This document shows, piece after piece, positions 3,703 to 60,490 of a DNA stretch of 64,000 nucleotides. Origin of the DNA: Candidatus Latescibacterota bacterium (lineage in GTDB: Bacteria > Latescibacterota > UBA2968 > UBA8231); assembly GCA_963422735.1 (NCBI GenBank), contig OY730476.1, positions 1 to 64,000 on the forward strand, given 5' to 3'. Within the stretch, counting starts at the first letter, position 1; the number at the start of each line of letters is the position of its first letter. The notes under the pieces are model-generated. The model had not been told where the DNA came from. It did not search any database and saw only the letters and a list, made by a program, of their open reading frames with translations. The position numbers and the translations under genes were made by a program.

Positions 3703-5304
3703 TCATTTCTTCTTCCCGCGGTGATCTTTTTGCAAAAAGGCGTTGGCCCAGGCGCTTGTCCCCTGTAAGGCCGCGTCCTTGATGACGGCTGTATCCCCGA
3801 GCATTTGTTCCTCTTCGCCATAGGCCTTGAGGCGGTCGTAGGCTCGCGCCCAGATGCAGTCCTTGTCGCCGACTTCGCACTTGCCTTGGCGCGTACCGCC
3901 GCAGGGACCGTTGCGCTGGTTTTTGACGCACTGAGACTCCGGGCACAAATAGGCGATGTCCGGCAGCGAGCAATCGCCGCAGTCGCGGCAGTCAAAAGCG
4001 GCGATCTTGAGTACGTGCTCGGCCGCGTGGAAGAGCTTAGCGGCCTTGGGGTGTTCGGTTAGGGCGCGTGCGAGCTGAGTGCCAGCGCGAAAACCTGTGC
4101 TCTCGGGCGCGAAAACTTGATCGTGGATGTGCCGGTTTAACTTGTAACTCAGGGGCAGGCGGGCGCGTGCTTGGCTGAGGGCGGCTTGCTCTTTGGAGGC
4201 GAGGTACGTGCGATTGACGGTCGTCGAGCTGAGGCTGGTGTCGCCATCGGGTTCAAAAAAGTAGAATTCGTCGGCAAAGGAGAAGCAAAGTTCCTTGGCG
4301 AAGTCGCGCCAGTCGTCTTCTGAGTATGCCGCCGCGAGGGCGAGGACCTTTTCGTAGTCGCCGTATTGCAGGTGCCCGCCGAGATAAGCCCCCCGATAGC
4401 CGAGGCCCTTGGCGATGGCACATTGCTTGGCGGCCAACTCCAAGAAGAAGGCTCGGCCCTTGTCGTTGGCTTGGGCCTGCTTTTCGACGATGGCCATCAG
4501 TTCATCGGTGACTTCGACCCCGGGAATGCGGCCCTTGTGGAAAAAGCGGGCCGCGGGCCGCGAGAGCACGTACACATTGGCGATGACCGGGACTTCTAGG
4601 CCGTACAGGGCCATGTATTTGAGCAGCTCGTCCTGCTTGCGTGCGTCGTAGCCGATCTGGCTGATGACAAAATCCGCGCCGGCGCGGATTTTTTTAGCCA
4701 GCTTGAAGTATTGGGGCATGGCCTCGCGCTCGTAGCGCTTGTGGTTGTTGACTACGGCCCCTAGGTAAAAATCCGTGGCCTCCATGCGCTGTGTCCGCTT
4801 GCCCTTTTTTGTTTCTAAGCCGGCGTTCATGGCGGCGAACATTTCGAGTAACCCGACCGAGTCGAGGTCAAAGACCCCCCCGGCCGTGCCCTGATAGCCG
4901 CTGATGGGATAATCACCAGACAGGGCGAGGATGTTGTTGAAGCCCTCGCTGGCGAGTTGCCAAGCGCGGCCTTGGAGCGCGTTGCGGTTCCAGTCCTTGC
5001 AGGAGAGGTGGATGATGACGTCTTGGCCGCGCGAGATCAGGTCTGTGCCGAGGGTGTCCGGGTTGATCATGGCGTTGCCCCCGGGGTTATCGGTTATGCT
5101 CAGGGCGTGGAATTGTGGGTGCTCGGCGAGGCGACGAGCAAGAGCGAGGACCTTGCGGCCGTCGCGCTCGGTGATTAAGCCCCGAGAGGTCACCAACTCG
5201 ACGATGTGGACGAAGGTGTCGGTGGCTTCGAGCAAGTGGCGCAGGGGTTTTTTTTGCCAAGCGCCCGAGTAGCGAGCGGGCGGATGGAGCGCGGTCAGGG
5301 ACAT
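3703..5304 (-). CDS. metF: Methylenetetrahydrofolate reductase with C-terminal Cys-rich MetV/MTHFR_C domain
   Basis: SITDNPGG, IIHLSCKDWN, LALSGDYP, GADFVISQ; C-terminal CRDCGDC..CPESQC.KNQRNGPCGG..CEV..CIW. Confidence 0.82.
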   Translation of the reverse strand: MSLTALHPPARYSGAWQKKPLRHLLEATDTFVHIVELVTSRGLITERDGRKVLALARRLAEHPQFHALSITDNPGGNAMINPDTLGTDLISRGQDVIIHLSCKDWNRNALQGRAWQLASEGFNNILALSGDYPISGYQGTAGGVFDLDSVGLLEMFAAMNAGLETKKGKRTQRMEATDFYLGAVVNNHKRYEREAMPQYFKLAKKIRAGADFVISQIGYDARKQDELLKYMALYGLEVPVIANVYVLSRPAARFFHKGRIPGVEVTDELMAIVEKQAQANDKGRAFFLELAAKQCAIAKGLGYRGAYLGGHLQYGDYEKVLALAAAYSEDDWRDFAKELCFSFADEFYFFEPDGDTSLSSTTVNRTYLASKEQAALSQARARLPLSYKLNRHIHDQVFAPESTGFRAGTQLARALTEHPKAAKLFHAAEHVLKIAAFDCRDCGDCSLPDIAYLCPESQCVKNQRNGPCGGTRQGKCEVGDKDCIWARAYDRLKAYGEEEQMLGDTAVIKDAALQGTSAWANAFLQKDHRGKKK

Positions 5305-25082: not shown

Positions 25083-27332
25083 TCAATTCTTGGGTGCTGC
25101 GCCCGCATCGCTTTCTTGCCGCCCTTTCGCTACGACAAATACCTGAGGCGTCGTCCAAGTCACCGCGCGGTTGGCCAAGCTCTGCTCGAAGAATTTGCGC
25201 ACCTGCCGCAGTTCGCCGGCGTCGAGATGCTGGGTCAGATGCTGGGCGTACGTGTGCCGCTTCTCGCCGCCGGGATTGAACCAGTGCTCGATATAGCGCG
25301 GCTCGATGTGCCGCTGCGACTGGACTGCTTCCACCCGCACCTGCACCGCGCCAAAGCCCGCAGCCTGGAACATCTGTTCGAGATCCGCGGCATCCCAGTT
25401 GACGCGCGGGTTGTCGGGCGTGGCGTAGATGGTCTCTTCGGCGGCGACGAGGTGCTCGCCTAGGTCGCCAAGCCGCTGTAAGTCGAGTAGCTGGTACAGG
25501 CGTTGCGACCGGCGCGAGAGGGTCTCGACCAAGCTGACGCGGCCCTGTGGAGCAAGGTAGCGATGCAGGGCGGCGACGACTTCTTCTTTGTGCGCCAGTG
25601 CGCCGAGGGCATTGCGCCCCACGATGGCGTCAAAGAGGATGTCGGGGTCGCGGGCGGCGATCTGGGCGGCGAGGGTGGCGAGCGGGCCTTGCAGCACTTG
25701 GGGCCGCTCGATCTCGGCTAGGTGGGCGGTGGTTTCGTGCAGGGCCACGGCGGCGATCTTGTCGCTAGTGTGCGCCCAGACGCCGCCTTCGGGTACGCGC
25801 CGCAGGGCTTCCCAAGTGAGCAGACCCGTGCCGGCTTCCAAGTCGAGGACGAGGTGGTGGCGCGCGAGTGTGAACGGGGCGAAGAGGCGTTGGCGCGTGC
25901 GCTCTAGTTGGGTGCCAACGTCGCCGCTGGCGCGCTTGAGCCATTGGTCGCGCGTCTGGTCGGCCGGGGACAGAGACAGCACCTCGGCCGGGGCGGACTC
26001 CGCTTCGATCATGGCGGCGAGCTGTAGCTCGCGGCGTTGGCGGACGCGGTCGCCAATGTCTTTTTCGCGGCCTTGGTCCGAGGGCTGGTAGAAGATGCGG
26101 CCCTGAAGGCCGAAGGGCAGGTACTGCTGGGCAACCCAGTGCTCGCGATAGGCGTGGGGATATAGATAGCCGGCGCCGTGGCCAAAGCCCTCGCTGTCGC
26201 GGCTGGCGTCTTTGAGGTGAGTGGGGACCTCGCCTTCGCGCTCTTTTTCCACGGCCGCCAGCGCGTCGAAAAAGGCCATAGTCGAGTTGCTCTTGGGCGC
26301 GGTGGCCAAGTACAAGGCGGCGTGGGCCAGGGGAAAGCGCCCTTCTGGCAAGCCGATGCGGTCGAAGGATTCAGCAGCGGCTATGACGACTTGGAGGGCG
26401 CGCTCGTCGGCGAGGCCGATGTCCTCGCTGGCAAAGATGAGCATGCGGCGGAAGAGGAAGCGCGGGTCTTCGCCCGCGTACACCATCCGCGCCAGCCAAT
26501 AGAGGGTGGCGTCTGGGTCCGAGCCGCGCATGGACTTGATAAAGGCGCTGATGGTGTCGAAGTGGTAGTCGCCCTCCTTGTCGTAGAGCAGGGCGCGCCG
26601 CTGGATGGACTCCTCGGCCACCGCTAGGTCGATGGCGATCCGCCCTTGGGTGTCTGGATCGGTGGTTTCGACCGCCAACTCTAGGGCGTTGAGTAGGGCG
26701 CGGGCGTCGCCGTTGGCCACGTCGATCAGGTGCGCACGGGCGTCGGGGTGTAGGTTGACGCGGAGATGGCCGTAGCCACGCGAGTCGGTAAGTGCCTGTT
26801 GGGCGATGTGCGCGAGGGCTTCGGAACTAAGGCCCTGGAGTTGAAAGACTCGGCTGCGCGAGAGTAGGGGGCGGTTGACCGAGAAGTATGGATTCTCGGT
26901 GGTCGCGCCGATGAGGATGATGGTGCCGTTTTCAACCCAAGGCAGGAGCGCGTCTTGCTGGGCCTTGTTGAAGCGGTGGACCTCGTCGATGAAGAGGATG
27001 GTTTTACGGCTGTGCAGCTTGCACAACTGGCCGGCCTCATCGACGGCTTGGCGAATGTCGGAGACCCCGGCCAAAACGGCGTTGATGGAGATAAAATGCG
27101 CACGGGTGGTGTGGGCAATGACCGCGGCGAGCGTGGTTTTGCCTGTGCCGGGCGGCCCGTAGAAAATCAGCGAGGAGAGTTGGTCGGCCTCAATGGCGCG
27201 TCGCAGCAAGCGGCCCGGCCCGAGAATGTGGTCTTGGCCGACGTATTCGTCTAAGGTGCGTGGTCGCAGGCGAGCGGCTAGGGGTTGATCCGCCGCTTGG
27301 CGATCCCGCAGTCCGGCGTCGAAGAGATCCAT
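25083..27332 (-). CDS. rarA: Replication-associated recombination protein A with C-terminal SAM-methyltransferase-like extension
   Basis: [53 protein letters not shown]-terminal [11 protein letters not shown]. Confidence 0.92.
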
Positions 27333-27342
27333 GTTTGTACCT

Positions 27343-27706
27343 CAGTGGTCAGTGGTTAGTGGTCAGTGGTCAGTGGTTAGTGGTCAGTGGTTAGTGGTCA
27401 GTGGTTAGGGGTTAGTGGTCAGTGGTTAGTGGTTAGTGGTTAGTGGTTAGTGGTTAGTGGTTAGTGGTTAGTGGTTAGTGGTTAGTGGTTAGTGGTTAGT
27501 GGTCAGTGGTCAGTGGTTAGTGGTTAGTGGTTAGTGGTTAGTGGTTAGTGGTCAGTGGTCAGGGGTTAGGGGTTAGTGGTCAGTGGTTAGTGGTTAGTGG
27601 TCAGGGGTTAGTGGTTAGTGGTTAGTGGTCAGTGGTTAGTAGTCAGTGGTTAGTGGTTAGTTTCCGTACCGCGCCTGCTGGAGAGGGACCAACCACTGAC
27701 CACTGA
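27343..27706. repeat. ~45-unit heptamer array (GTGGTTA/GTGGTCA/GGGGTTA) plus short inverted arm
   Basis: Tandem array 27343-27661; complementary CCAACCACTGACCACTGA at ~27690-27706. Confidence 0.97.
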
Positions 27707-47023: not shown

Positions 47024-47170
47024 CAGTGGTTAGGGGTTAGTGATCAGTGGTTAGGGGTTAGTGATCAGTGGTTAGGGGTTAGTGATCAGTGGTTAGTGAT
47101 CAGTGATCAGGGGTTAGGGGTCGGTCCCAACTCGCCCTTGGGTGTGGTGCTGGGGCTGACCACAGCCCCT
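47024..47170. repeat. Heptamer array with 21-bp higher-order repeat upstream of addB
   Basis: (GTGGTTA GGGGTTA GTGATCA) x3 plus further units to ~47122; short complementary arm CTGACCACAGCCCCT at ~47156-47170. Confidence 0.92.
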
Positions 47171-51370: not shown

Positions 51371-51393
51371 TTAGTGGTTAGTGGTTAGTGGTC
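51371..51393. repeat. Short heptamer run (TAGTGGT x3)
   Basis: TAGTGGTTAGTGGTTAGTGGTCC, about 230 nt upstream of res. Confidence 0.8.
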
Positions 51394-51618: not shown

Positions 51619-54600
51619 TTGACTGAATTCTTTGAACAGCCCATTCTCAACTCGCCTTACGAGCGCCCGAACCGGCATTGGGAACTGGACGAGACCGGGC
51701 AGCCGACCCAGCAGATCGTCGAACACCGCCGGCAGGCCGAGTTTATCACGCCGATCCCACAGCCTAAGAAGCGCAAGGGAAAAGAGCAACAAGCCGCGCT
51801 GGTATTCGACGCGGCGGCGCAGAAGCTCGAAACCGCCGGCCAGCAATACGACCTGACGGCCATCATCAACGGGGTTCGTCAGCAGGTTGATCGCTGGCGC
51901 GACCTACCGAATCCGAGCCAATGGCAGGTGACCCCGGAGACCGCTCGGCTGCTCCGGCACTGGCGGGACCACCGCTTCAGTGGGACTCGGCCCTTCTTCT
52001 GCCAAGTCGAAGCGGTAGAGACCGCTATATGGCTCACTGAAGTTGCGCCTAGAACGCGATCCGGCAAGAGCTTCCTCGACCACCTAGCGAACGCCAACAA
52101 CGACGCCAATCCAGACCTGCCCCTGCCGCGGTTGGCACTCAAGTTGGCGACCGGCACCGGCAAGACCACGGTTATGGCCATGTTGATTGCTTGGCAGACC
52201 GTCAACGCGGTGCGCCGGCCTCAGAGCCGCGGCTTCACGCGCGGTTTCCTCGTAGTCACGCCCGGGATCACCATCAAGGACCGCCTGCGGGTGCTGCAAC
52301 CAAACGATCCGGACAGTTACTACCAGAGCCGCGAGTTGGTTCCAAGCGACATGCTCCCCGACTTGGAAAAGGCCAAGATCGTCATTACCAACTACCACGC
52401 CTTCAAGCGGCGCGAACGCATGGAGCTTTCCAAAGGCGGGCGATCTTTGCTTCAGGGACGGGGCGAGACGCTCTCGACCTTGGAGACCGAGGGGCAAATG
52501 CTGCAACGGGTGATGCCCGAACTCATGGGCGTAAAGAACGTCTTGATCCTCAACGACGAAGCGCACCACTGCTACCGCGAGAAGCCGGGCGAGGGGGAGG
52601 AAGGTGCGCTCAAGGGCGATGACAGAAAGGAAGCCGAAAAGAACAGGGAGGCGGCGCGGCTGTGGATTTCCGGGCTGGAAATCGTCGGCAGCAAGCTCGG
52701 CATCAACCGGGTGATGGACCTCTCGGCAACGCCGTTCTTTTTGCGCGGGTCGGGCTACGCCGAAGGTACGTTGTTCCCCTGGACGATGTGCGACTTCTCG
52801 CTCATGGACGCCATTGAATGCGGCATCGTCAAACTGCCCCGCGTGCCGGTGGCCGACAACATCCCCGGCAGCGACATGCCCAAGTTTCGCAATCTTTGGG
52901 AACACATCCGCACCAACATGCCGAAGAAGGGGCGGGGCAAGGCCAAGGAACTCGATCCTCTCAGTTTGCCCGTGGAGCTACAGACCGCACTGGAAGCCCT
53001 GTATGGGCATTATCGGAAGACCTTCGCGCTTATGCAGGAGGCGGGCATTGGCGTGCCGCCGTGCTTCATTGTGGTCTGCAACAACACCTCGACCTCCAAG
53101 TTGGTGTACGACTACATCTCCGGCTTCCACCGCGAGAACGAGGATGGTTCAAAGAAACTTGAGAATGGTCGCCTAGCGCTGTTTCGCAACTTTGACGAAC
53201 AGGGCAACCAGTACCCACGGCCTCGCACCCTGCTAATCGACAGCGAACAATTGGAGTCTGGCGACGCGCTCGACAAGAACTTCCGCAACATGGCGGCAGA
53301 TGAGATCGAGCGTTTCCGCCGCGAGATTATCGAACGTACCGGCGACCGTCGTCAGGCCGGAAATATCACCGACCAAGACTTGCTGCGGGAAGTGATGAAT
53401 ACAGTCGGCAAACCGGGGCGGCTAGGGGATTCGATTCGCTGTGTGGTGTCGGTCTCTATGCTCACGGAAGGGTGGGATGCGAACACCGTCAGCCATGTGT
53501 TGGGCGTGCGGGCCTTTGGGACGCAGTTGCTTTGCGAGCAGGTCGTTGGCCGTGCGTTGCGCCGGCAGTCCTACGATCTCAACGAAAAAGGTTTGTTCGA
53601 TGTCGAGTACGCCGATGTCTTGGGCATTCCATTCGACTTTACGGCCAAGCCCGTTGTGGCCCCGACGAGACCGCCGCGAGAGACCGTTCAGGTGCGGGCC
53701 ATGCGACCTGAACGGGATGCGCTGGAGATTTGTTTTCCTCGGGTAGCCGGGTATCGAGTGGAATTGCCGGAAGAGCGGCTCAAAGCCGAGTTCAACGAGG
53801 ACTCGGTGCTGGAACTCACGCCCGATCTGGTTGGTCCGTCGAGAACGAGGAACCAGGGGATTATCGGCGAGGGCGTGGATCTCAATCTGGTTCACACCAA
53901 CGACCTGCGGCGCTCGACCCTACTTTTTCATCTGACCCATCGGTTGCTCTACACCAAGTACCGCGATCCGGGCGAAGAGCCCAAGCTCTATCTTTTCGGC
54001 CAGCTCAAGCGCATCGCCAAGCAGTGGCTCGATGGCTGCCTCGTCTGCAAGGGCAGCACCTATCCGGCCCAACTCATGTACCAGGGACTAGCCGACACAG
54101 CCTGCGGGCGCATCGCCGCCGCCATCACGCAAGCGAAAATCGACCATCATCCGGTCAAAGCGGTGCTCGATCCGTACAACTCCGTTGGTTCAACAGCCCA
54201 CGTGAATTTCAACACGACCAAGGCCAGCCGCTGGCAGACCGACGCCCGCCGTTGCCACATCAACTGGATCATCCTCGACAGCGACTGGGAAGCGGAGTTT
54301 TGCCGCGTCGCCGAATCCCATCCGCACGTCAAAGCCTACGTCAAAAACCACAATCTCGGCTTGGAAGTGCCCTACCGTTGCGGGTCGGAAACGCGGACGT
54401 ATATCCCGGACTTTATCGTCCGCATTGATGATGGCGGTGGCGATGAGGATCTGCTGCATCTGATCGTCGAGATCAAGGGCTATCGGGGGGAAGACGCCAA
54501 GGACAAGAAGACGACCATGGACACCTATTGGGTGCCTGGCGTGAATCATCGCGGGGACTACGGGCGCTGGGCTTTTGCCGAGCTTACCGATGTGTTCGAG

Positions 54601-54654
54601 GTGGAAGCTGCGTTCAATCGTTTGGTTGAGCGGTTCCGGTTGAGGACCGGGTAG
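51619..54654 (+). CDS. Type III restriction-like endonuclease/helicase (Res)
   Basis: LATGTGKT, NDEAHH, SATP, MLTEGWD, EQVVGR.LR; C-terminal YIPDF..VEIKG nuclease. Confidence 0.92.
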   Translation: MTEFFEQPILNSPYERPNRHWELDETGQPTQQIVEHRRQAEFITPIPQPKKRKGKEQQAALVFDAAAQKLETAGQQYDLTAIINGVRQQVDRWRDLPNPSQWQVTPETARLLRHWRDHRFSGTRPFFCQVEAVETAIWLTEVAPRTRSGKSFLDHLANANNDANPDLPLPRLALKLATGTGKTTVMAMLIAWQTVNAVRRPQSRGFTRGFLVVTPGITIKDRLRVLQPNDPDSYYQSRELVPSDMLPDLEKAKIVITNYHAFKRRERMELSKGGRSLLQGRGETLSTLETEGQMLQRVMPELMGVKNVLILNDEAHHCYREKPGEGEEGALKGDDRKEAEKNREAARLWISGLEIVGSKLGINRVMDLSATPFFLRGSGYAEGTLFPWTMCDFSLMDAIECGIVKLPRVPVADNIPGSDMPKFRNLWEHIRTNMPKKGRGKAKELDPLSLPVELQTALEALYGHYRKTFALMQEAGIGVPPCFIVVCNNTSTSKLVYDYISGFHRENEDGSKKLENGRLALFRNFDEQGNQYPRPRTLLIDSEQLESGDALDKNFRNMAADEIERFRREIIERTGDRRQAGNITDQDLLREVMNTVGKPGRLGDSIRCVVSVSMLTEGWDANTVSHVLGVRAFGTQLLCEQVVGRALRRQSYDLNEKGLFDVEYADVLGIPFDFTAKPVVAPTRPPRETVQVRAMRPERDALEICFPRVAGYRVELPEERLKAEFNEDSVLELTPDLVGPSRTRNQGIIGEGVDLNLVHTNDLRRSTLLFHLTHRLLYTKYRDPGEEPKLYLFGQLKRIAKQWLDGCLVCKGSTYPAQLMYQGLADTACGRIAAAITQAKIDHHPVKAVLDPYNSVGSTAHVNFNTTKASRWQTDARRCHINWIILDSDWEAEFCRVAESHPHVKAYVKNHNLGLEVPYRCGSETRTYIPDFIVRIDDGGGDEDLLHLIVEIKGYRGEDAKDKKTTMDTYWVPGVNHRGDYGRWAFAELTDVFEVEAAFNRLVERFRLRTG

Positions 54655-54695: not shown

Positions 54696-56438
54696 ATGCC
54701 TTGGGATAGCGATAGCTTGTTGCAGCAACTCAAGCTTGGCGAGGACAGCCGCGTTGAGTTCAAAGAAGCCGGGTTCACCGGCGACCGCGTCCGTGCGCCT
54801 CATCGGGACGCTATCGCCGACGAGTTGGCCGCTTTGGGCAACACCATCGGCGGCACCTTGATCTTCAGCGCGTCCGACGCTGGTGAGGTGCGGTCGATGA
54901 ACCGCGAACAGATGGATGCGTTGGAAGCCTTCGTCAGCGAGATTTGTGCAGACAGCATCCGTCCTCCGTTGGCGTTTGTCACCCAACGGTTGGCTCTGCC
55001 GGACGGTTCGTTTGTGCTGGTTGTCGAAGTCGAACAAAGTGCGCTGGTCCACAAGAGTCCCGGGGGATACCTTTCCCGACAAGGCAGTGCCAAGCGAGAG
55101 ATGTCGTCGGAGGCATTGAACCGTCTGTTTCAGCAACGGGGGCGTTCTGGCCTGCTCGGCCCTGACGAAGCGATCGTTGCCGGAACCGGATCCAACACGC
55201 TCGATGAAACCCTAACAGATCGTTTCATGAGTTCGCGCGCCACCGAGCCCACAATCGTCCAACTCACAAAGCTGGGGTTGGTGCGGGAGGATGACAGCGG
55301 TGCGATCCGCGCAACGGTCGCCGGGGTGTTGCTTTGCTCCGGACGCCCGGATGAGCACATACGCGGCGCGATGATCGAAGCAGTTCGCTATCGCGGCACG
55401 GTGCTTGGCCGAGCGAGTCAGCACGACGCGGCGTCCATCACCGGCCCGTTGGACCAGCAGATCCGCGATGCGGTCAACTTCGCTAGACTCAACACGCGGG
55501 TAGCGGCGCGCAAGGCCCCGGGGCGAGTAGAGACCCCGCAATTTAGTCCGCGAGCAGTATTTGAGGCCATCGTCAACGCGGTGGTCCACCGCGACTACTC
55601 AGTGGAGAACGCAAAGATACGGCTCTTCATCTTCGACGACCGCCTTGAGTTGTACTCGCCGGGTGCTCTGCCCAACACGCTGCCCATCGAAGCCATGCGC
55701 AATCGACAAGCCACCCGCAATGAAACGCTCGCGTCCATCCTCCGTATGCTCGCGGTAGGGGATATTGCCGGTGCGGGTGACCGGCAGTATTTCTTGGAGC
55801 AACGCGGTGAAGGGGTTCCGATCATCTACGAGCAGACCCGGGAGCTGACAGGACGCGATCCAGAGTACGAACTGCTCGGCGGCGCGGAACTGCGGCTGAC
55901 GATACCTTCTGCCCGTCCGCCGGTAACGGGCATCGAAGGGGAAGTGTTGGTGTCTGCCGCCGGTCAGCCGCTTGCAAGTGCAAAGGTCGTTGCGCTGTAC
56001 CCCAACAAGACTTGGATGGAGGGGGAAACCAATGCGTTTGGTCGGGTCCATTTCGGGTTTCACTCGAAACTTCCCATCACCGTTTTCTGCGCGGCACCGG
56101 GACACACTGCCCACGTGGAGCGGGATTGGCACCCGCCGGAATCGCTCTCGGTGCAGCTTGAACCGCTGCCAATGGGTGGATCAACGGTGTTCACGGAGGG
56201 GACAGGTCACTTGCCCAATTTGACCGGGCGGCTAGATCCGATCCTCGACGATCTCGACCGCATGTACCTGTACGCGACAAACGTCGCCATTGACGAAGGC
56301 AAGCAGCAACCCGTGCGTTTCAAACTGAATCAGCCCTTGCAGCTTACAGATGTCAACGGGTTTGAATGGATCGTGCGGTTCATTGAGATGATCGGAAAGT
56401 CGGCACTGTTGGAATACGAATCCCCGTCCCCCGATTAA
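54696..56438 (+). CDS. Schlafen/AlbA_2 + HATPase_c_4 protein with atypical C-terminal domain
   Basis: GEDSRVEFKE, ALGNTIGG, EAIVNAVVHRDY, DRLELYSPG.LP, RN, EQRGEG. Confidence 0.85.
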   Translation: MPWDSDSLLQQLKLGEDSRVEFKEAGFTGDRVRAPHRDAIADELAALGNTIGGTLIFSASDAGEVRSMNREQMDALEAFVSEICADSIRPPLAFVTQRLALPDGSFVLVVEVEQSALVHKSPGGYLSRQGSAKREMSSEALNRLFQQRGRSGLLGPDEAIVAGTGSNTLDETLTDRFMSSRATEPTIVQLTKLGLVREDDSGAIRATVAGVLLCSGRPDEHIRGAMIEAVRYRGTVLGRASQHDAASITGPLDQQIRDAVNFARLNTRVAARKAPGRVETPQFSPRAVFEAIVNAVVHRDYSVENAKIRLFIFDDRLELYSPGALPNTLPIEAMRNRQATRNETLASILRMLAVGDIAGAGDRQYFLEQRGEGVPIIYEQTRELTGRDPEYELLGGAELRLTIPSARPPVTGIEGEVLVSAAGQPLASAKVVALYPNKTWMEGETNAFGRVHFGFHSKLPITVFCAAPGHTAHVERDWHPPESLSVQLEPLPMGGSTVFTEGTGHLPNLTGRLDPILDDLDRMYLYATNVAIDEGKQQPVRFKLNQPLQLTDVNGFEWIVRFIEMIGKSALLEYESPSPD

Positions 56439-56450
56439 AATGAGGAATCC

Positions 56451-56672
56451 ATGAGAGAGAAAGTTTATCTCGAAACGATCGTGATTAGCTATCTGACTGC
56501 TTGGCGAAGTCCACAACTCTTGATGGCAGCACATCAAGAAGCAACGCGAATTTGGTGGGACGAACAAAAAATAACTTCGATATATTTACGTCAGAGGCCG
56601 TCATTGAAGAAACGTCAGTAGGTGATCCCGAAGCCGCGCAACGGCGACCCTCTCGAATTAATGGAGGAATAA
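56451..56672 (+). pseudogene. PIN-domain toxin, frameshifted and internally deleted
   Basis: MREKVYLETIVISYL..HQEATRIWW / FDIFTSEAVIEE..GDPEAAQRR / PLELMEE*. Confidence 0.75.
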
Positions 56673-56676
56673 GCTC

Positions 56677-56850
56677 ATGCAACCAGACCCAATCGTCGAA
56701 GAAGTCCGTAAGATACGCGATGAGTATGCTAAGAGATTCAATTATGACCTAGATGCGATTTGCCGAGATTTACAAGAGAAGCAGAGGCAGGGCGAAAAAA
56801 GAGTGATTTCTTTGCCGCCCAAACGCCCAAGAAAGATGAACGACACTTGA
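56677..56850 (+). CDS. Small putative antitoxin (57 aa)
   Basis: MQPDPIVEEVRKIRDEYAKRFNYDLDAICRDL; RBS GGAGG; follows the PIN remnant. Confidence 0.75.
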   Translation: MQPDPIVEEVRKIRDEYAKRFNYDLDAICRDLQEKQRQGEKRVISLPPKRPRKMNDT

Positions 56851-56923: not shown

Positions 56924-59900
56924 ATGGCAAAACGAAAATCACCTAAGACGGTCGCAACTCTGCGGCACGAGGACGCAGCGCGTAAGAATATCCCCACGGC
57001 CGAGTATCAGGCGGTGATGGAGGAGGACGACCGGAATCCCATTGAGGTCGCGTACGAGCGGCGCAACCGGGACCTCGACCCGCAGCTTGTTTGGCGCGGC
57101 AAGGACGAGCAGAACGAGTCGGACCTCGTGGTGCAAGCACCGCCGCTGTTCATTCAGGAGAAGGTGCATCCGCAGGTGCTGATTGACGATCTGCGGCAGC
57201 GGAGCAAGGAGACGGAGAAGGAGGATGGCGAATCGGGCTTCCAGACGGATCTGTTCGCGGATTTCAACGGCCTGCCGAGTGCAGACGCCCAGACTGAGTT
57301 CTACCAGCACGACGCCAACTGGTCGAATCGGATGATTCTTGGGGACAGCTTGCAGGTGATGGCGTCTTTGGCCGAACGCGAGGGCCTGCGCGGCAAGGTG
57401 CAGTGCATCTATCTCGACCCGCCCTACGGCATCAAGTTCAACTCGAACTTCCAGTGGTCAACCACCAGCCGCGATGTGAAGGACGGCAAGGCCGAGCACA
57501 TCACCCGCGAGCCGGAGCAGGTCAAGGCGTTTCGGGATACGTGGCGGGACGGGATTCATTCGTACCTGACGTACTTGCGGGATCGGCTGACGGTGGCGCG
57601 GGATCTGTTGACGGAGAGTGGATCGATCTTTGTGCAGATTGGGGATGAGAATGTGCATCGGGTAAGGGCGGTGATGGATGAGGTGTTTGGGGAGGGGAAT
57701 TTTGTTGGGTTGATTACTTTTATGAAGGCAACAGCACAGACTTCCAAGCTGCTATCAACAGCATCAGATTACTTGATTTGGTACGCTCGGTTGAAGCCAC
57801 AGGCAAAATATCGCGCACCATTGCTAAAAAAAGTAATTGGTCGGGCCGGAGCTACGGGCTACTCGAACATAGAAGCGTCTGATGGAACTATCTCTCGTCG
57901 TATAAGCCAAGAGGAACGGGAAAATCCTGCTCTTATTTCTACAGATGAGAGAGTGTTCGCATTAGACCATATACGTGGCACAAGGACTCCGAATCCTGCT
58001 GACCTTAAAGGTTATACATTTCAAGGCACAACCTTTAATTCCGACGGACGCTATTGCTGGAAAACCGACAAAAAGGGTCTCGACAACCTTGACAAGAGCT
58101 GGCCGGTTGTAAAAGCAGGAAACCAATTATCGTACAAGCGATATTTCCACGATGATTGCCTATCCCGTTCGACAAACTGGGCGATACCGCTGGTATTGCT
58201 ACGGATAAAGTCGATACGTCGTGGAGACGAAACCAAAGTCATCCAACGCTGCATCCTCATGACCACAGACCCTGGCGACCTCGTCCTCGACCCCACCTGC
58301 GGCTCCGGCACCACCGCCTACGTCGCCGAGCAGTGGGGCCGCCGCTGGATCACCATCGACACCTCCCGCGTCGCCCTCGCACTCGCCCGCGCCCGCATCA
58401 TGGGCGCACGCTATCCCTGGTATCTGCTCGCCGACAGCCCCGAAGGCCGGCGCAAGGAAGCGGAAATCAGTGGCCAGGCGTCAGTGACCGGTGGTCAGTT
58501 TAACGACAACTCGCCGACCACTGGTCACTCTCACTCCATCCGCCAAGGCTTTGTCTATCAGCGCGTCCCCCACATTACGCTCAAGTCCATCGCCAACAAC
58601 GCCGAGATCGACGTAATCTGGGAGAAGTACGAGGAGCGGCTTGCGCCGCTCCGTGAACAGTTGTCAGCCCACCGGCCACAGACCACTGACCACCGGCCAC
58701 TCGAAGAATGGGAGATACCGCGTGAGCGTCCAGAAGACTGGCCACCGGCCACTGAACCACTGATCACTGCTTTCTGGAAGCAGCGCATCGCCCGACAAAA
58801 GGAAATCGACGCTTCCATCGCCGCCAAAGCCGACTATGAATACCTCTACGACAAGCCCTACGAAGACAACAAGAAAGTCCGCGTGGCTGGCCCGTTTACG
58901 GTGGAAAGCCTGTCGCCGCACCGCCTGTTGGGCGTGGACGAGAACGACGAACTCATCATTGATAAAGCTGCCGAAGACAAACCCGACTACGGCGAAAAGC
59001 AGGACTTTGCCGAGATGATCCTCGATAATCTCAAAACCTCTGGCGTCCAGCAGGCGCACAAAGACGACAAAATCAACTTCAGCTCACTCGTCCCCTGGCC
59101 CGGCCACCTCGTCTGCGCCGAAGGCCGGTTTGATAGTGGTCAGTGGCCAGTGGTCAGTGGCCAGAAGAAGAACGCACAAGCCACTGGTCACAGACCACGG
59201 GCTACTGAACACCGCGCCGGCATTTTCATTGGCCCGGAATTCGGCACCGTCTCCCGTCCCGACCTCGTGGAAGCAGTCCGCGAGGCCGCCGACGCCGGCT
59301 TCGACGTTTTAATCGCCTGCGCCTTCAACTATGACGCCCACGCCTCGGAGTTCAACAAACTTGGCCGCGTCCCCATCCTCAAGGCGCGCATGAACGCCGA
59401 CCTGCATATGGCCGACGATCTCAAAAACACCGGCAAAGGCAACCTCTTCGTCATCTTCGGCGAGCCGGATATTACAGTGACCAGTGGTCAGTGGCTGGTG
59501 GCCAGTAACGGGAGAATGATTGCGAATTATGAGCACGTTAAAGAGTTATCAGGACTTGGAAGTCTGGAAGAAATCAATCGAACTGGCAGAGATGGTCTAT
59601 CGAATCTCTGCCAAGTTTCAGCCGGAAGAAAAATTCGGCATAACCAGCCAAGTGCGGAGGGCGGCGGTATCCGTGGCAGCGAATATCGCAGAGGGAGCAG
59701 AGCGTCACGGGACCAAGGAATTTCTCCAATTTCTGGGGATAGCCAGCGGTTCTCTAGCAGAGACGGAGACCTTTCTGATTCTGGCGCAGAAGCTGGGAAT
59801 GGCCCCAGCCGAGCAGATCAACCCCCTGCTATCGCAGGCGGCGGACGTTGGACGGATGCTCAATGGGCTCAAGCGCTCGCTGCGGTCCAGGAACTGACTC

Positions 59901-60262
59901 ACGCGGACTTCCCGCTGTCCCTGACCACAGGCCACTGGTCACAGGCCACTGTCCACGGCGTGGACGTATTTCATCCGAACACCGGCGAAATCCGCAGCGA
60001 CAGCGCCGACGGCATCGCCTGCTGGTTCGTCGATACCGACTACAACGAGGAAAGCTTCTTCGTGCGCCACGCCTACTTCCTCGGCGCCAACGATCCGTAC
60101 AAGACGCTCAAGACGACGCTCAAAGCCGAGATCAATCGAGAAGCTTGGGAAACCCTCAAAAGCGACACCTCCCGGCCTTTCGCCAAGCCGCAGTCGGGCC
60201 GCATCGCGGTGAAGGTGATCAATCACTTAGGGGACGAGGTGATGAAGGTGTTTCGGGTGTGA
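56924..60262 (+). CDS. Type III-like N6/N4 DNA methyltransferase (Mod, beta order) with repeat-derived insertions
   Basis: YLDPPYGI (motif IV), variable TRD, LDPTCGSGTT (motif I), C-terminal GRIAVKVINHLGDE. Confidence 0.92.
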   Translation: MAKRKSPKTVATLRHEDAARKNIPTAEYQAVMEEDDRNPIEVAYERRNRDLDPQLVWRGKDEQNESDLVVQAPPLFIQEKVHPQVLIDDLRQRSKETEKEDGESGFQTDLFADFNGLPSADAQTEFYQHDANWSNRMILGDSLQVMASLAEREGLRGKVQCIYLDPPYGIKFNSNFQWSTTSRDVKDGKAEHITREPEQVKAFRDTWRDGIHSYLTYLRDRLTVARDLLTESGSIFVQIGDENVHRVRAVMDEVFGEGNFVGLITFMKATAQTSKLLSTASDYLIWYARLKPQAKYRAPLLKKVIGRAGATGYSNIEASDGTISRRISQEERENPALISTDERVFALDHIRGTRTPNPADLKGYTFQGTTFNSDGRYCWKTDKKGLDNLDKSWPVVKAGNQLSYKRYFHDDCLSRSTNWAIPLVLLRIKSIRRGDETKVIQRCILMTTDPGDLVLDPTCGSGTTAYVAEQWGRRWITIDTSRVALALARARIMGARYPWYLLADSPEGRRKEAEISGQASVTGGQFNDNSPTTGHSHSIRQGFVYQRVPHITLKSIANNAEIDVIWEKYEERLAPLREQLSAHRPQTTDHRPLEEWEIPRERPEDWPPATEPLITAFWKQRIARQKEIDASIAAKADYEYLYDKPYEDNKKVRVAGPFTVESLSPHRLLGVDENDELIIDKAAEDKPDYGEKQDFAEMILDNLKTSGVQQAHKDDKINFSSLVPWPGHLVCAEGRFDSGQWPVVSGQKKNAQATGHRPRATEHRAGIFIGPEFGTVSRPDLVEAVREAADAGFDVLIACAFNYDAHASEFNKLGRVPILKARMNADLHMADDLKNTGKGNLFVIFGEPDITVTSGQWLVASNGRMIANYEHVKELSGLGSLEEINRTGRDGLSNLCQVSAGRKIRHNQPSAEGGGIRGSEYRRGSRASRDQGISPISGDSQRFSSRDGDLSDSGAEAGNGPSRADQPPAIAGGGRWTDAQWAQALAAVQELTHADFPLSLTTGHWSQATVHGVDVFHPNTGEIRSDSADGIACWFVDTDYNEESFFVRHAYFLGANDPYKTLKTTLKAEINREAWETLKSDTSRPFAKPQSGRIAVKVINHLGDEVMKVFRV
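58468..59215. repeat. In-frame heptamer clusters inside mod
   Basis: Hairpin 58483-58496/58516-58529; CCACYGR-like runs 58669-58703 and 58736-58770; inverted runs 59134-59164/59181-59215. Confidence 0.88.
59475..59959. repeat. Inverted heptamer arms bracketing the nested gene
   Basis: Left five units 59475-59509; right five units 59925-59959; perfect 11-bp IR GTGACCAGTGG (59477-59487) / CCACTGGTCAC (59932-59942). Confidence 0.88.
59529..59897 (+). CDS. Four-helix-bundle protein (23S rRNA IVS protein / bAvd-like), nested in mod
   Basis: SYQDLEVWKKS, F..EEKFG.TSQ.RRAAVSV.ANIAEG, EF.QFL.IA.GSL.E.ET, ML.GL; upstream GGAGA; +1 frame relative to mod. Confidence 0.93.
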   Translation: MSTLKSYQDLEVWKKSIELAEMVYRISAKFQPEEKFGITSQVRRAAVSVAANIAEGAERHGTKEFLQFLGIASGSLAETETFLILAQKLGMAPAEQINPLLSQAADVGRMLNGLKRSLRSRN

Positions 60263-60305
60263 GGATCGGATAAAGACGAATCGCCCATCTCTAACTGACT
60301 ACCCC

Positions 60306-60490
60306 ATGAAAAAACAAACCATCCAATACACTTCGCCCATAGTGCGGTTAAATACCTACGAAAATCAGCAACAGATGAATTCGGAAGAGATCTTTGACTA
60401 GTACAACCGGGGCCAACTATCCGACGATTGGGCCAATGACTACCGCCACTATTTGCAACTCCGCGCCGTTCCAACGCATACAATAAGGGC
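60306..60490 (+). pseudogene. TumA-like antitoxin remnant
   Basis: MKKQTIQYTSP..RLNTYENQQQMNSEEIFD*YNRGQLSDD..WANDYRHYL; in-frame stop; family call from recalled motifs. Confidence 0.55.

Follow-up and report, generated by a model that had tools for sequence, protein, structure and literature searches.

How can a complete gene lie within another protein-coding gene, on the same strand, and leave the outer reading frame without a stop? This question is raised by a 64,000-nucleotide (nt) stretch of DNA from Candidatus Latescibacterota bacterium (assembly GCA_963422735.1, contig OY730476.1, positions 1 to 64,000; the whole stretch is hereafter called the window), in which a gene for a four-helix-bundle (4HB) protein, enclosed by inverted heptamer repeats, is nested in mod, the gene for a type III-like DNA methyltransferase (Mod). 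Long same-strand overlapping genes with evidence of selection in two frames are rare and disputed in bacteria. Comparisons across the family show, at the level of aligned sequences, that selection maintains the 4HB protein within the cassette and Mod in the arms and flanks, and that it acts against synonymous changes that would create stops in the Mod frame. The cassette is thus probably translated through as a loop of Mod, while the 4HB protein would be made from its own start site.

A Four-Helix-Bundle Gene inside mod

The nested arrangement consists of the following features.

56924 to 60262, forward strand: mod, 1112 amino acids (aa), stop-free through the cassette; recognized by PF01555, by the PADLOC MTase_III model PDLC03632, and by a fold match to EcoP15I Mod.
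59475 to 59506, forward strand: left arm, with about 4.5 CAGTGRY heptamers in tandem; Mod-frame translation TSGQWLVAS; wobble in Mod phase.
59510 to 59515, forward strand: Shine-Dalgarno (SD)-like GGGAGA, 13 nt before the 4HB ATG and in the inner part of the putative long-range stem; nearly invariant.
59529 to 59897, forward strand: nested 4HB gene, 122 aa, in the +1 frame relative to mod.
59917 to 59956, forward strand: right arm, heptamers of the RYCACTG type in inverted orientation; Mod-frame translation LTTGHWSQATVH.

An earlier note, made from the letters of the window, had described a 122-aa open reading frame (ORF) in the +1 frame within a stop-free mod, preceded by an SD, and the ORF listing agrees with it in each of these respects. 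The frame is +1 because 59520 − 56924 = 2596 = 3 × 865 + 1, where 59520 is an alternative TTG start that gives a longer form of the ORF (59520 to 59897, forward strand, 125 aa). The 4HB protein covers the whole PF05635 profile (23S_rRNA_IVP, positions 1–106 of 106; E = 1.5×10−38, 131.7 bits, cutoff 33.8) and also matches TIGR02436 "four helix bundle protein" (E = 1.3×10−36, 125.2 bits, cutoff 24). Together with the inverted heptamers, these matches bear out the view of a repeat-armed cassette that carries a 4HB gene of the intervening-sequence (IVS) family. Residues 5–121 match the solved pentameric XCC0516 (2gsc_A, E = 1.6×10−24; five chains in the entry). A consensus GxxRxxxSxxxNxxE is given for PF05635-type proteins, and PF05635 genes are noted in cas loci, in the excerpted text of PMC3936711. 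In the 4HB translation, RxxxSxxxNxxE (RRAAVSVAANIAEG) has R, S, N, and E correctly spaced, with the leading G off the stated distance.

The nested gene is the sole PF05635 gene of the 4.95-Mb, 95% complete genome, and all 20 aligned loci retain its start codon (19 ATG and 1 TTG). A Mod-frame ATG (59516–59518, GGGAGAATG; Met865 of Mod, conserved as GRM) follows directly after the SD and is probably too near to it to act as a start. Identity with Avd, the accessory protein of diversity-generating retroelements (DGRs), was considered and rejected, the scores being 24 bits for NF033474 (cutoff 80) and 25 bits for bAvd (PF22296, cutoff 40). The earlier note saw no reverse transcriptase in the window, and none (PF00078) was found across the whole genome, which rules out that the 4HB protein serves a DGR as its Avd; transposases were outside the search.

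Selection on Two Reading Frames

To which of the two proteins does each part of the insert answer? When 16 loci are aligned without gaps, Mod codon positions 1/2/3 show mean pairwise differences of 0.098/0.057/0.393 in the upstream and 0.112/0.064/0.401 in the downstream Mod flank. The arm segments show the same Mod pattern (0.178/0.115/0.351 and 0.176/0.131/0.399). The interior (59529–59894) gives 0.445/0.194/0.135, with the 4HB third position varying most. This switch of phase indicates that the sequence past the 4HB stop, like the arms, evolves as coding sequence of Mod, and the interior as coding sequence of the 4HB protein.

For a stop to arise in the Mod frame, a 4HB codon must end in T and the next one must begin with AA, AG, or GA. 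Among 24 nested genes, T occupies 0 of 704 such third positions, as against 347 of 2,251 (15.4%) elsewhere. At fourfold sites of 18 thinned sequences the counts are 0 of 307 versus 105 of 850 (P = 2.4×10−15), and A, C, and G are all used. The Mod-type frame is accordingly open in all 24 nested genes, compared with 6 of 48 free-standing relatives. Moreover, the 4HB copy in a Poribacteria Mod (locus L045, 3937–4356) has suffered a net 96-nt deletion and its own frame is full of stops, yet the Mod frame is open over 140 aa; a dead 4HB gene in an intact Mod frame indicates that the host frame is maintained in its own right. The earlier proposal that selection keeps the host frame readable is well supported by these data, and the opposite pattern, homologous insertions that usually break the host frame, was not found.

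The open Mod frame might instead be a by-product of G+C-rich sequence, the inner ORF being a relic without selection in two frames, and 22.6% of synonymous shuffles do keep the frame of the window's own copy open (0.02–0.56 for the individual nested genes). This explanation is hardly credible given the difference between nested and free-standing copies, the complete absence of T at the critical positions, the clear wobble in 4HB phase, and the product of the shuffle probabilities over the 18 thinned sequences (8×10−21, an overstated value since the sequences are related). Several points nevertheless weigh against selection in two frames. T is also depleted before AA, AG, or GA in the 48 free-standing relatives (162 of 1,297, 12.5%, versus 989 of 4,590, 21.5%, elsewhere), so part of the avoidance is a general context bias. 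The value of the window taken by itself (0.226) is not significant, and the case for open-frame selection therefore draws on the family of related members, whose relatedness makes both the counts and the probability product overstate independence. The evidence that full-length Mod and the 4HB protein are both produced is comparative throughout.

One part of the interior departs from the 4HB pattern.

59547 to 59576, forward strand: stretch frozen at all three codon positions, read as YQDLEVWKKS in the 4HB frame and LSGLGSLEEI in the Mod frame; differences 0.10/0.00/0.05.

Synonymous 4HB differences in this stretch and in the rest of the gene are 0.14 versus 0.51 in nested copies and 0.57 versus 0.68 in free-standing copies. 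The comparison points to an extra constraint, which may come from the Mod frame (LSGLGSLEEI lies in a confidently modeled part of Mod) or from the RNA.

Age of the Association and the Insert Site

Is the nested gene peculiar to this locus? A protein search with Mod residues 620–1112 returned at least 8,000 matches, and all of the best 120 were classed as filled. The insert is present, with the Mod frame open, in 19 of 19 aligned Mod homologs (66–84% identity, including Thioflavicoccus and Desulfobacterium). A DNA scan with the 4HB protein gave 80 loci, in 25 of which the 4HB gene lies within a Mod gene; the taxa named for those loci are Pseudomonadota (gamma, alpha), Chloroflexota, Thermodesulfobacteriota, Methylomirabilota, Nitrospirota, Verrucomicrobiota, Acidobacteriota, Planctomycetota, Bacteroidota, and Poribacteria. 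From FGEPD to GVDVF there are exactly 172 Mod codons in the window and in 19 further loci, 170 and 171 in two distant loci, and 140 in one with a deletion, without a stop in any of them. A recent or local insertion does not agree with the recurrence of the same 172-codon segment in about ten phyla. The arrangement is old and, with its length unchanged over this range, was inherited or transferred together with the Mod family. A tblastn search of the 4HB protein against plasmids added 26 records, all annotated as stand-alone, and no additional nested host.

The outer gene is not intact everywhere. Mod runs as a single frame of more than 1000 codons in 14 loci; elsewhere there are contig ends, or frame changes or truncations in other parts of the gene. 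Frame changes or truncation upstream or downstream in L004, L006, L007, L013, L023, L026, L035, and L045 count against translation through the cassette, and they could be due to assembly errors, pseudogenes, or decay.

It is also evident where the cassette sits. In empty-site Mod homologs (plasmid-borne and metagenomic, 43–65% identity), FGEPDI-x-x is followed by 15–16 residues with a DG-type turn and then by x-V-x-V-x-GVDVF. In an alignment with these homologs the insert boundaries are exact, between FGEPDI(xx) and (xVx)GVDVF, and 162 residues stand in place of the 15–16-residue hairpin, a net gain of about 146 aa. The comparison therefore indicates that the cassette replaces the tip of a beta-hairpin, and the empty site that the earlier note had expected from an alignment of Mod homologs does exist. 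Among the best 150 Mod representatives at 50% identity listed, 50 are empty, 7 filled, 1 intermediate, and 92 fragments that lack the junction. Filled and empty alleles of related Mods also occur side by side in contigs from the same metagenome runs, both DNA-type and RNA-type. Contig joints that skip the insert bear their own hairpin-coding letters, which identifies them as empty alleles from relatives rather than as spliced RNA.

The AlphaFold2 model of Mod from 96 sequences (predicted local distance difference test [pLDDT] 82, predicted template modeling score 0.83) places strands E849–855 and E1005–1016 on either side of the insert and helices at 869–876, 881–897, and 978–989. Block-mean pLDDT is 88–93 for insert residues 851–900 and 981–1010 and below 50 for 899–974. 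The first ~50 and last ~30 residues of the insert are thus predicted to be structured and residues 899–974 to be disordered. Of the earlier description of ~150 low-complexity residues between FGEPDI and GVDVFHP, the place and the size of the gain hold; the insert is not of low complexity throughout, as the model gives it structured ends and a disordered middle. Against the weight of this model it should be said that a previous one from 19 sequences was unusable (pLDDT 40.8).

Heptamer Arms and the Fate of the Cassette

In the window the heptamer motif occurs 68 times, where 0.05 matches are expected from shuffles. The arms are complementary over 32 nt (59474–59505 versus 59921–59952, 78%), and the perfect 11-bp core picked out by the earlier note is confirmed at 59477–59487 versus 59932–59942, one heptamer off the best-conserved register of the family. 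By RNAalifold, the two arms pair with each other, and the SD (GGGAG, 59510–59514) with CUUCC (59908–59912); the alignment columns of the SD (55–59) pair with columns 453–457 in 94.6% of cells. The downstream partner belongs to the following element.

59906 to 59912, forward strand: GACTTCC, just past the 4HB stop, complementary to the SD region 59510–59514 and to GGAAGTC at 59558–59564.

Pairing of GACTTCC with either of the two is possible and comes without covariation. The alternative helix GGAAGUC (59558–59564)/GACUUCC (59906–59912) is paired in 97.7% of cells with zero covariation, and hence is uninformative.

In 20 sequences, 83.1% of the stem cells pair, versus 26–50% when the partners are slid by 1–3 columns, and register 0 is the best of 43 tried (81.3% paired). 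Cells with double changes number 26, compared with 15.1 ± 4.0 in shuffles (2 of 500 shuffles as high), and wobble positions are paired with one another, e.g., at columns 21:495 (AU in 7 sequences, GC in 7). The minimum-energy fold of the window's own sequence (−207.2 kcal/mol, z = −2.83) uses the −7 register, which holds the 11-bp core. Other observations speak against a conserved regulatory stem. Pairs changed on both sides number 7, versus 6.0 in shuffles (191 of 500 as high), so that covariation is modest, and the scoring is prone to false positives with related sequences, which may have inflated the stem scores. Pairing of the arms is also possible with a shift of one or two heptamers (73–74% and 65.5%). 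In 52 non-Mod cassettes, support for sequestration of the SD is weak (duplex energy −10.8 versus −8.4 kcal/mol, P = 0.012).

These observations can be joined into one scheme. An IVS-type cassette, a 4HB gene between inverted tandem-heptamer arrays, occupies the tip of a beta-hairpin on the surface of Mod, in the C-terminal part of the protein, and has traveled with the Mod family for a long time. Ribosomes on mod would read through the cassette, adding ~146 residues, and go on to the conserved C-terminal 100 residues; the 4HB protein would be a separate product, translated in the +1 frame with an SD and ATG of its own. Both steps are suggested by the comparative data. Tentatively, the arms would form a long-range stem of ~30–35 bp that also covers the SD, and synthesis of the 4HB protein may then depend on mod-translating ribosomes opening this stem. 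Cleavage of the stem by ribonuclease III (RNase III) is a possible competing fate: the genome encodes the enzyme, which could cut the arm stem and sever the mod messenger RNA (mRNA), a further difficulty for reading through the cassette.

The same stem and the same enzyme, together with the excision of the homologous Coxiella IVS by RNase III in vitro (PMC4990558, in its available part), invite the idea that the cassette is removed or skipped at the RNA level, by RNase III excision and rejoining or by ribosomal bypass, leaving Mod without the insert. The earlier note had left translation as a loop and RNA-level removal side by side; the former is favored by the comparative data, and the latter is not needed and appears improbable. 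Removal or bypass does not require a stop-free Mod frame over 122 codons, and yet all 24 nested genes, as well as the decayed L045, avoid stops; the arms and part of the insert are under Mod-frame constraint; the joints that skip the insert belong to relatives, as described above; and excision of the ribosomal RNA (rRNA) IVS leaves fragments unjoined (PMC4990558, as far as the excerpt goes), which would sever an mRNA. A group I or group II intron or another self-splicing RNA was rejected likewise, as an Rfam scan of 58300–60400 at E ≤ 1 found no intron or rRNA family and only three chance-level matches to microRNA and small RNA families.

Could the arms act as a phase-variation switch? Since 7 leaves a remainder of 1 on division by 3 and the 4HB gene is read at +1 relative to Mod, a change of one 7-nt unit in the left arm would give a Mod(1–855)-4HB fusion or turn Mod off, and heptamer copy number does differ among Coxiella strains (PMC4990558, in part). 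However, the length from FGEPD to GVDVF is identical in the window and the 19 loci, with no unit gained or lost, and no 7-nt indel was found in the arms among the metagenome contigs, although contigs drop rare variants. A switch of this kind is thus very improbable, even more so than removal from the RNA, and translation through the cassette continues to be the preferred reading.

Free-Standing Copies and Movement

Does the cassette occur outside Mod? Most other PF05635 genes fetched have inverted tandem-heptamer arrays on either side, with a lineage-specific unit. By a strict automatic test of 52 non-Mod 4HB loci, 37 had an array on one or both sides, 21 had arrays on both, and 28 had the inverted unit opposite; the corresponding counts for displaced controls were 4, 0, and 0 of 262. 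The element is therefore an rRNA-IVS-type cassette.

Trees (FastTree, midpoint rooting) suggest that the association with Mod has been gained or lost repeatedly. In a Mod tree built without the insert (57 rows, 26 filled and 31 empty), the filled/empty label needs 6 changes, of which well-supported branches force at least 5. Four empties fall within the main filled clade, where for one of the four the sister is a filled gene (local support 100%), and the filled L042 and P0153 each stand next to an empty sister in the otherwise empty half of the tree. These changes at the same Mod site may reflect repeated entry, repeated loss, or recombination between alleles. In the 4HB tree, a clade with 97% support unites 22 Mod-nested copies with 5 free-standing ones (L016, L017, and L018), so the cassette has left Mod at least twice. 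The copies at L016:3943–4946 and L017:3922–5021 are tandem pairs with identical proteins, and they retain the GACTTCCC element after the stop. The Bacteroidota copy L042 has 82% local support in the 4HB tree over 126 columns, a placement too weak to tell independent capture from old co-inheritance.

These data also bear on whether the cassette is a passenger at all. It might be a domesticated regulator of the restriction-modification (R-M) genes, the 4HB protein or stem cleavage tuning Mod or Res levels, e.g., on entering a new host. The 4HB frame has been under purifying selection over about ten phyla while linked to Mod, the freezing of the 30-nt stretch at three codon positions is confined to nested copies, the predicted stem includes the SD, and the window's genome has a single PF05635 gene. 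On the other hand, many close Mod homologs are free of the cassette (50 empty versus 7 filled among the best 150 listed) and empties are nested in the filled clade; the same cassette type also occupies unrelated intergenic sites, and copies of the Mod lineage have left Mod; and one copy has decayed (L045). Regulation therefore seems the less likely role, though it is not as improbable as the alternatives above.

Another possibility, put forward with about the same reserve, is that heptamer-armed 4HB cassettes are a distinct class of mobile element, proposed to be transposase-less and built for being translated through. A ring-forming 4HB protein would recognize arms of about five heptamers, as RNA or DNA, and control its own spread or copy number, and possibly also the 76 cargo-less arrays of the genome. 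With arms and gene stop-free in an extra frame, such a cassette could settle in loops of protein genes without killing the host gene. Three observations fit this proposal: 6 of the 48 intergenic copies are open in an extra frame from arm to arm, whereas 0.56 are expected from synonymous shuffles; at least 5 entries or exits took place at the same Mod beta-turn; and copies of the Mod lineage have moved and doubled. The six open copies are L059, L069, L073, L077, L081, and L046 (4HB at ~4000–4400 of each locus); five of them are Rhizobiales-type, between ...GDEKAK and MTEHNVRNF genes, and hence are not independent.

The 76 arrays of the genome, which has one PF05635 gene, are strict period-7 arrays, nearly all of YAGTGGT/ACCACTR units as in the cassette arms. 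A link between cassette and genomic arrays is inconsistent, as the heptamer pattern counts are 2, 11, 0, 172, and 1 in five other carrier genomes. Within the window, period-7 arrays lie at 27342–27662, 47024–47105, and 51372–51390. In the region 27342–27705, an array of ~46 units lies in the 5′ leader of a minus-strand gene (25083–27332), directly upstream of its start at 27332, with a short inverted arm at 27687–27705.

Comparison with Known Elements

The closest known counterpart is the IVS of 23S rRNA. In Coxiella burnetii it measures 428 nt, contains an S23p ORF and a 28-bp terminal stem, has tandem heptamers of strain-variable copy number before the ORF and an SD within the stem, and is cleaved by RNase III in vitro; a Leptospira IVS is cited in the same source (PMC4990558, consulted in part). 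The Mod cassette resembles it in having a PF05635/S23p ORF in the loop of a putative long terminal-inverted-repeat stem, tandem heptamers adjoining the ORF, an SD in the stem region, a size of ~430–480 nt, and a place in the transcript of another gene. It differs in that the host is a protein-coding gene and not a 23S rRNA helix, and that the host frame is kept open and apparently translated through, so that the arms double as coding sequence. Moreover, the ORF is under purifying selection in the Mod cassette and in decay in Coxiella (PMC4990558, excerpt), and the Mod cassette is known from its sequence, whereas excision of the Coxiella element has been seen in vitro. The free-standing PF05635 cassettes in operon spacers (L027–L081) share the gene family and the inverted heptamer arrays, but 42 of 48 have stops in the Mod-type frame.

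PF05635 proteins have been likened to Avd (PMC10053308, in the part available). Avd (bAvd, PF22296/NF033474) belongs to a distantly related family of four-helix-bundle folds, and the nested 4HB protein is set apart from it by the scores far under the cutoffs and by a genome lacking a PF00078 match. Rickettsia palindromic elements are hairpin repeats that lie in frame inside ORFs, are translated, add a loop to the protein, and have no gene of their own. The Mod cassette is likewise an ORF-preserving hairpin repeat, but it has its own gene in a second frame; the nearest likeness is the cargo-less hairpin of mod at 59127–59206. Inteins with nested homing endonucleases are inserts in the host frame that remove themselves by protein splicing. 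Like these selfish inteins, the cassette has the size of a gene, occupies a fixed position in a host protein gene, and has both filled and empty alleles; unlike them, it has its guest in the other frame and lacks splicing motifs and an endonuclease.

In the literature, nothing was found on a 4HB gene nested in a methyltransferase gene, nor on a general heptamer-arm design beyond Coxiella, although other papers or supplements could hold such descriptions. The findings would extend the rRNA "intervening sequence" element to protein-coding hosts and tie together three poorly understood things, the PF05635 family, bacterial heptamer repeats, and inserts in defense genes. For overlapping genes, 122 shared codons in dozens of species come with clean controls, namely free-standing copies, empty-site alleles, and one decayed copy. 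The locus also offers a simple system for asking how a single mRNA accommodates ribosomes, a long stem, and an internal start site. As gene finders report the long Mod ORF only, the inner gene is missed, and Mod is annotated with ~146 unexplained residues.

The Host Gene and Its Neighborhood

The product of mod is a type III-like beta-class N6/N4 DNA methyltransferase (PF01555, E = 2×10−28, residues 159–486; PADLOC MTase_III model PDLC03632, 1282 bits). DPPY (165–168), which precedes the S-adenosylmethionine-binding motif, and PTCGSGTT (457–464) are invariant in the Mod alignment, with a variable stretch between them. The closest fold to the AlphaFold2 model is EcoP15I Mod (4zcf, E = 5×10−17). 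Other features of mod and its surroundings are as follows.

51619 to 54654, forward strand: putative partner restriction subunit (res), outside the cassette, with candidate helicase and endonuclease domains.
58468 to 58529 and 58665 to 58768, forward strand: further in-frame heptamer patches in mod, variable among homologs (alignment columns 570–700).
59127 to 59206, forward strand: cargo-less in-frame heptamer hairpin in mod (SGQWPVVSGQ..ATGHRPRATEH), from a repeat search; Mod alignment columns 846–970.

The ORF at 51619–54654 matches PF04851 ResIII (E = 1.2×10−8), with a PF19778 endonuclease score just below the cutoff (22.1 versus 23.4 bits) and weak REase_III matches (E = 1×10−5); the neighbor of plasmid Mod homologs is annotated as "BPTD_3080 family restriction endonuclease". 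Between res and mod lie a Schlafen/AlbA_2 plus HATPase_c_4 gene (54696–56438) and then two small ORFs without a family (56451–56850). The protein of 54696–56438 has weak PADLOC matches to models associated with prokaryotic Argonaute (pAgo), and different small genes occupy the res-mod gap in the plasmid homologs. The hairpin at 59127–59206 is present in some Mod homologs, absent from others, and multiplied in one: the Thioflavicoccus Mod (P0108) carries ~5 tandem copies of this type (GDQWPV..TGHQPPT units) at alignment columns 850–970.

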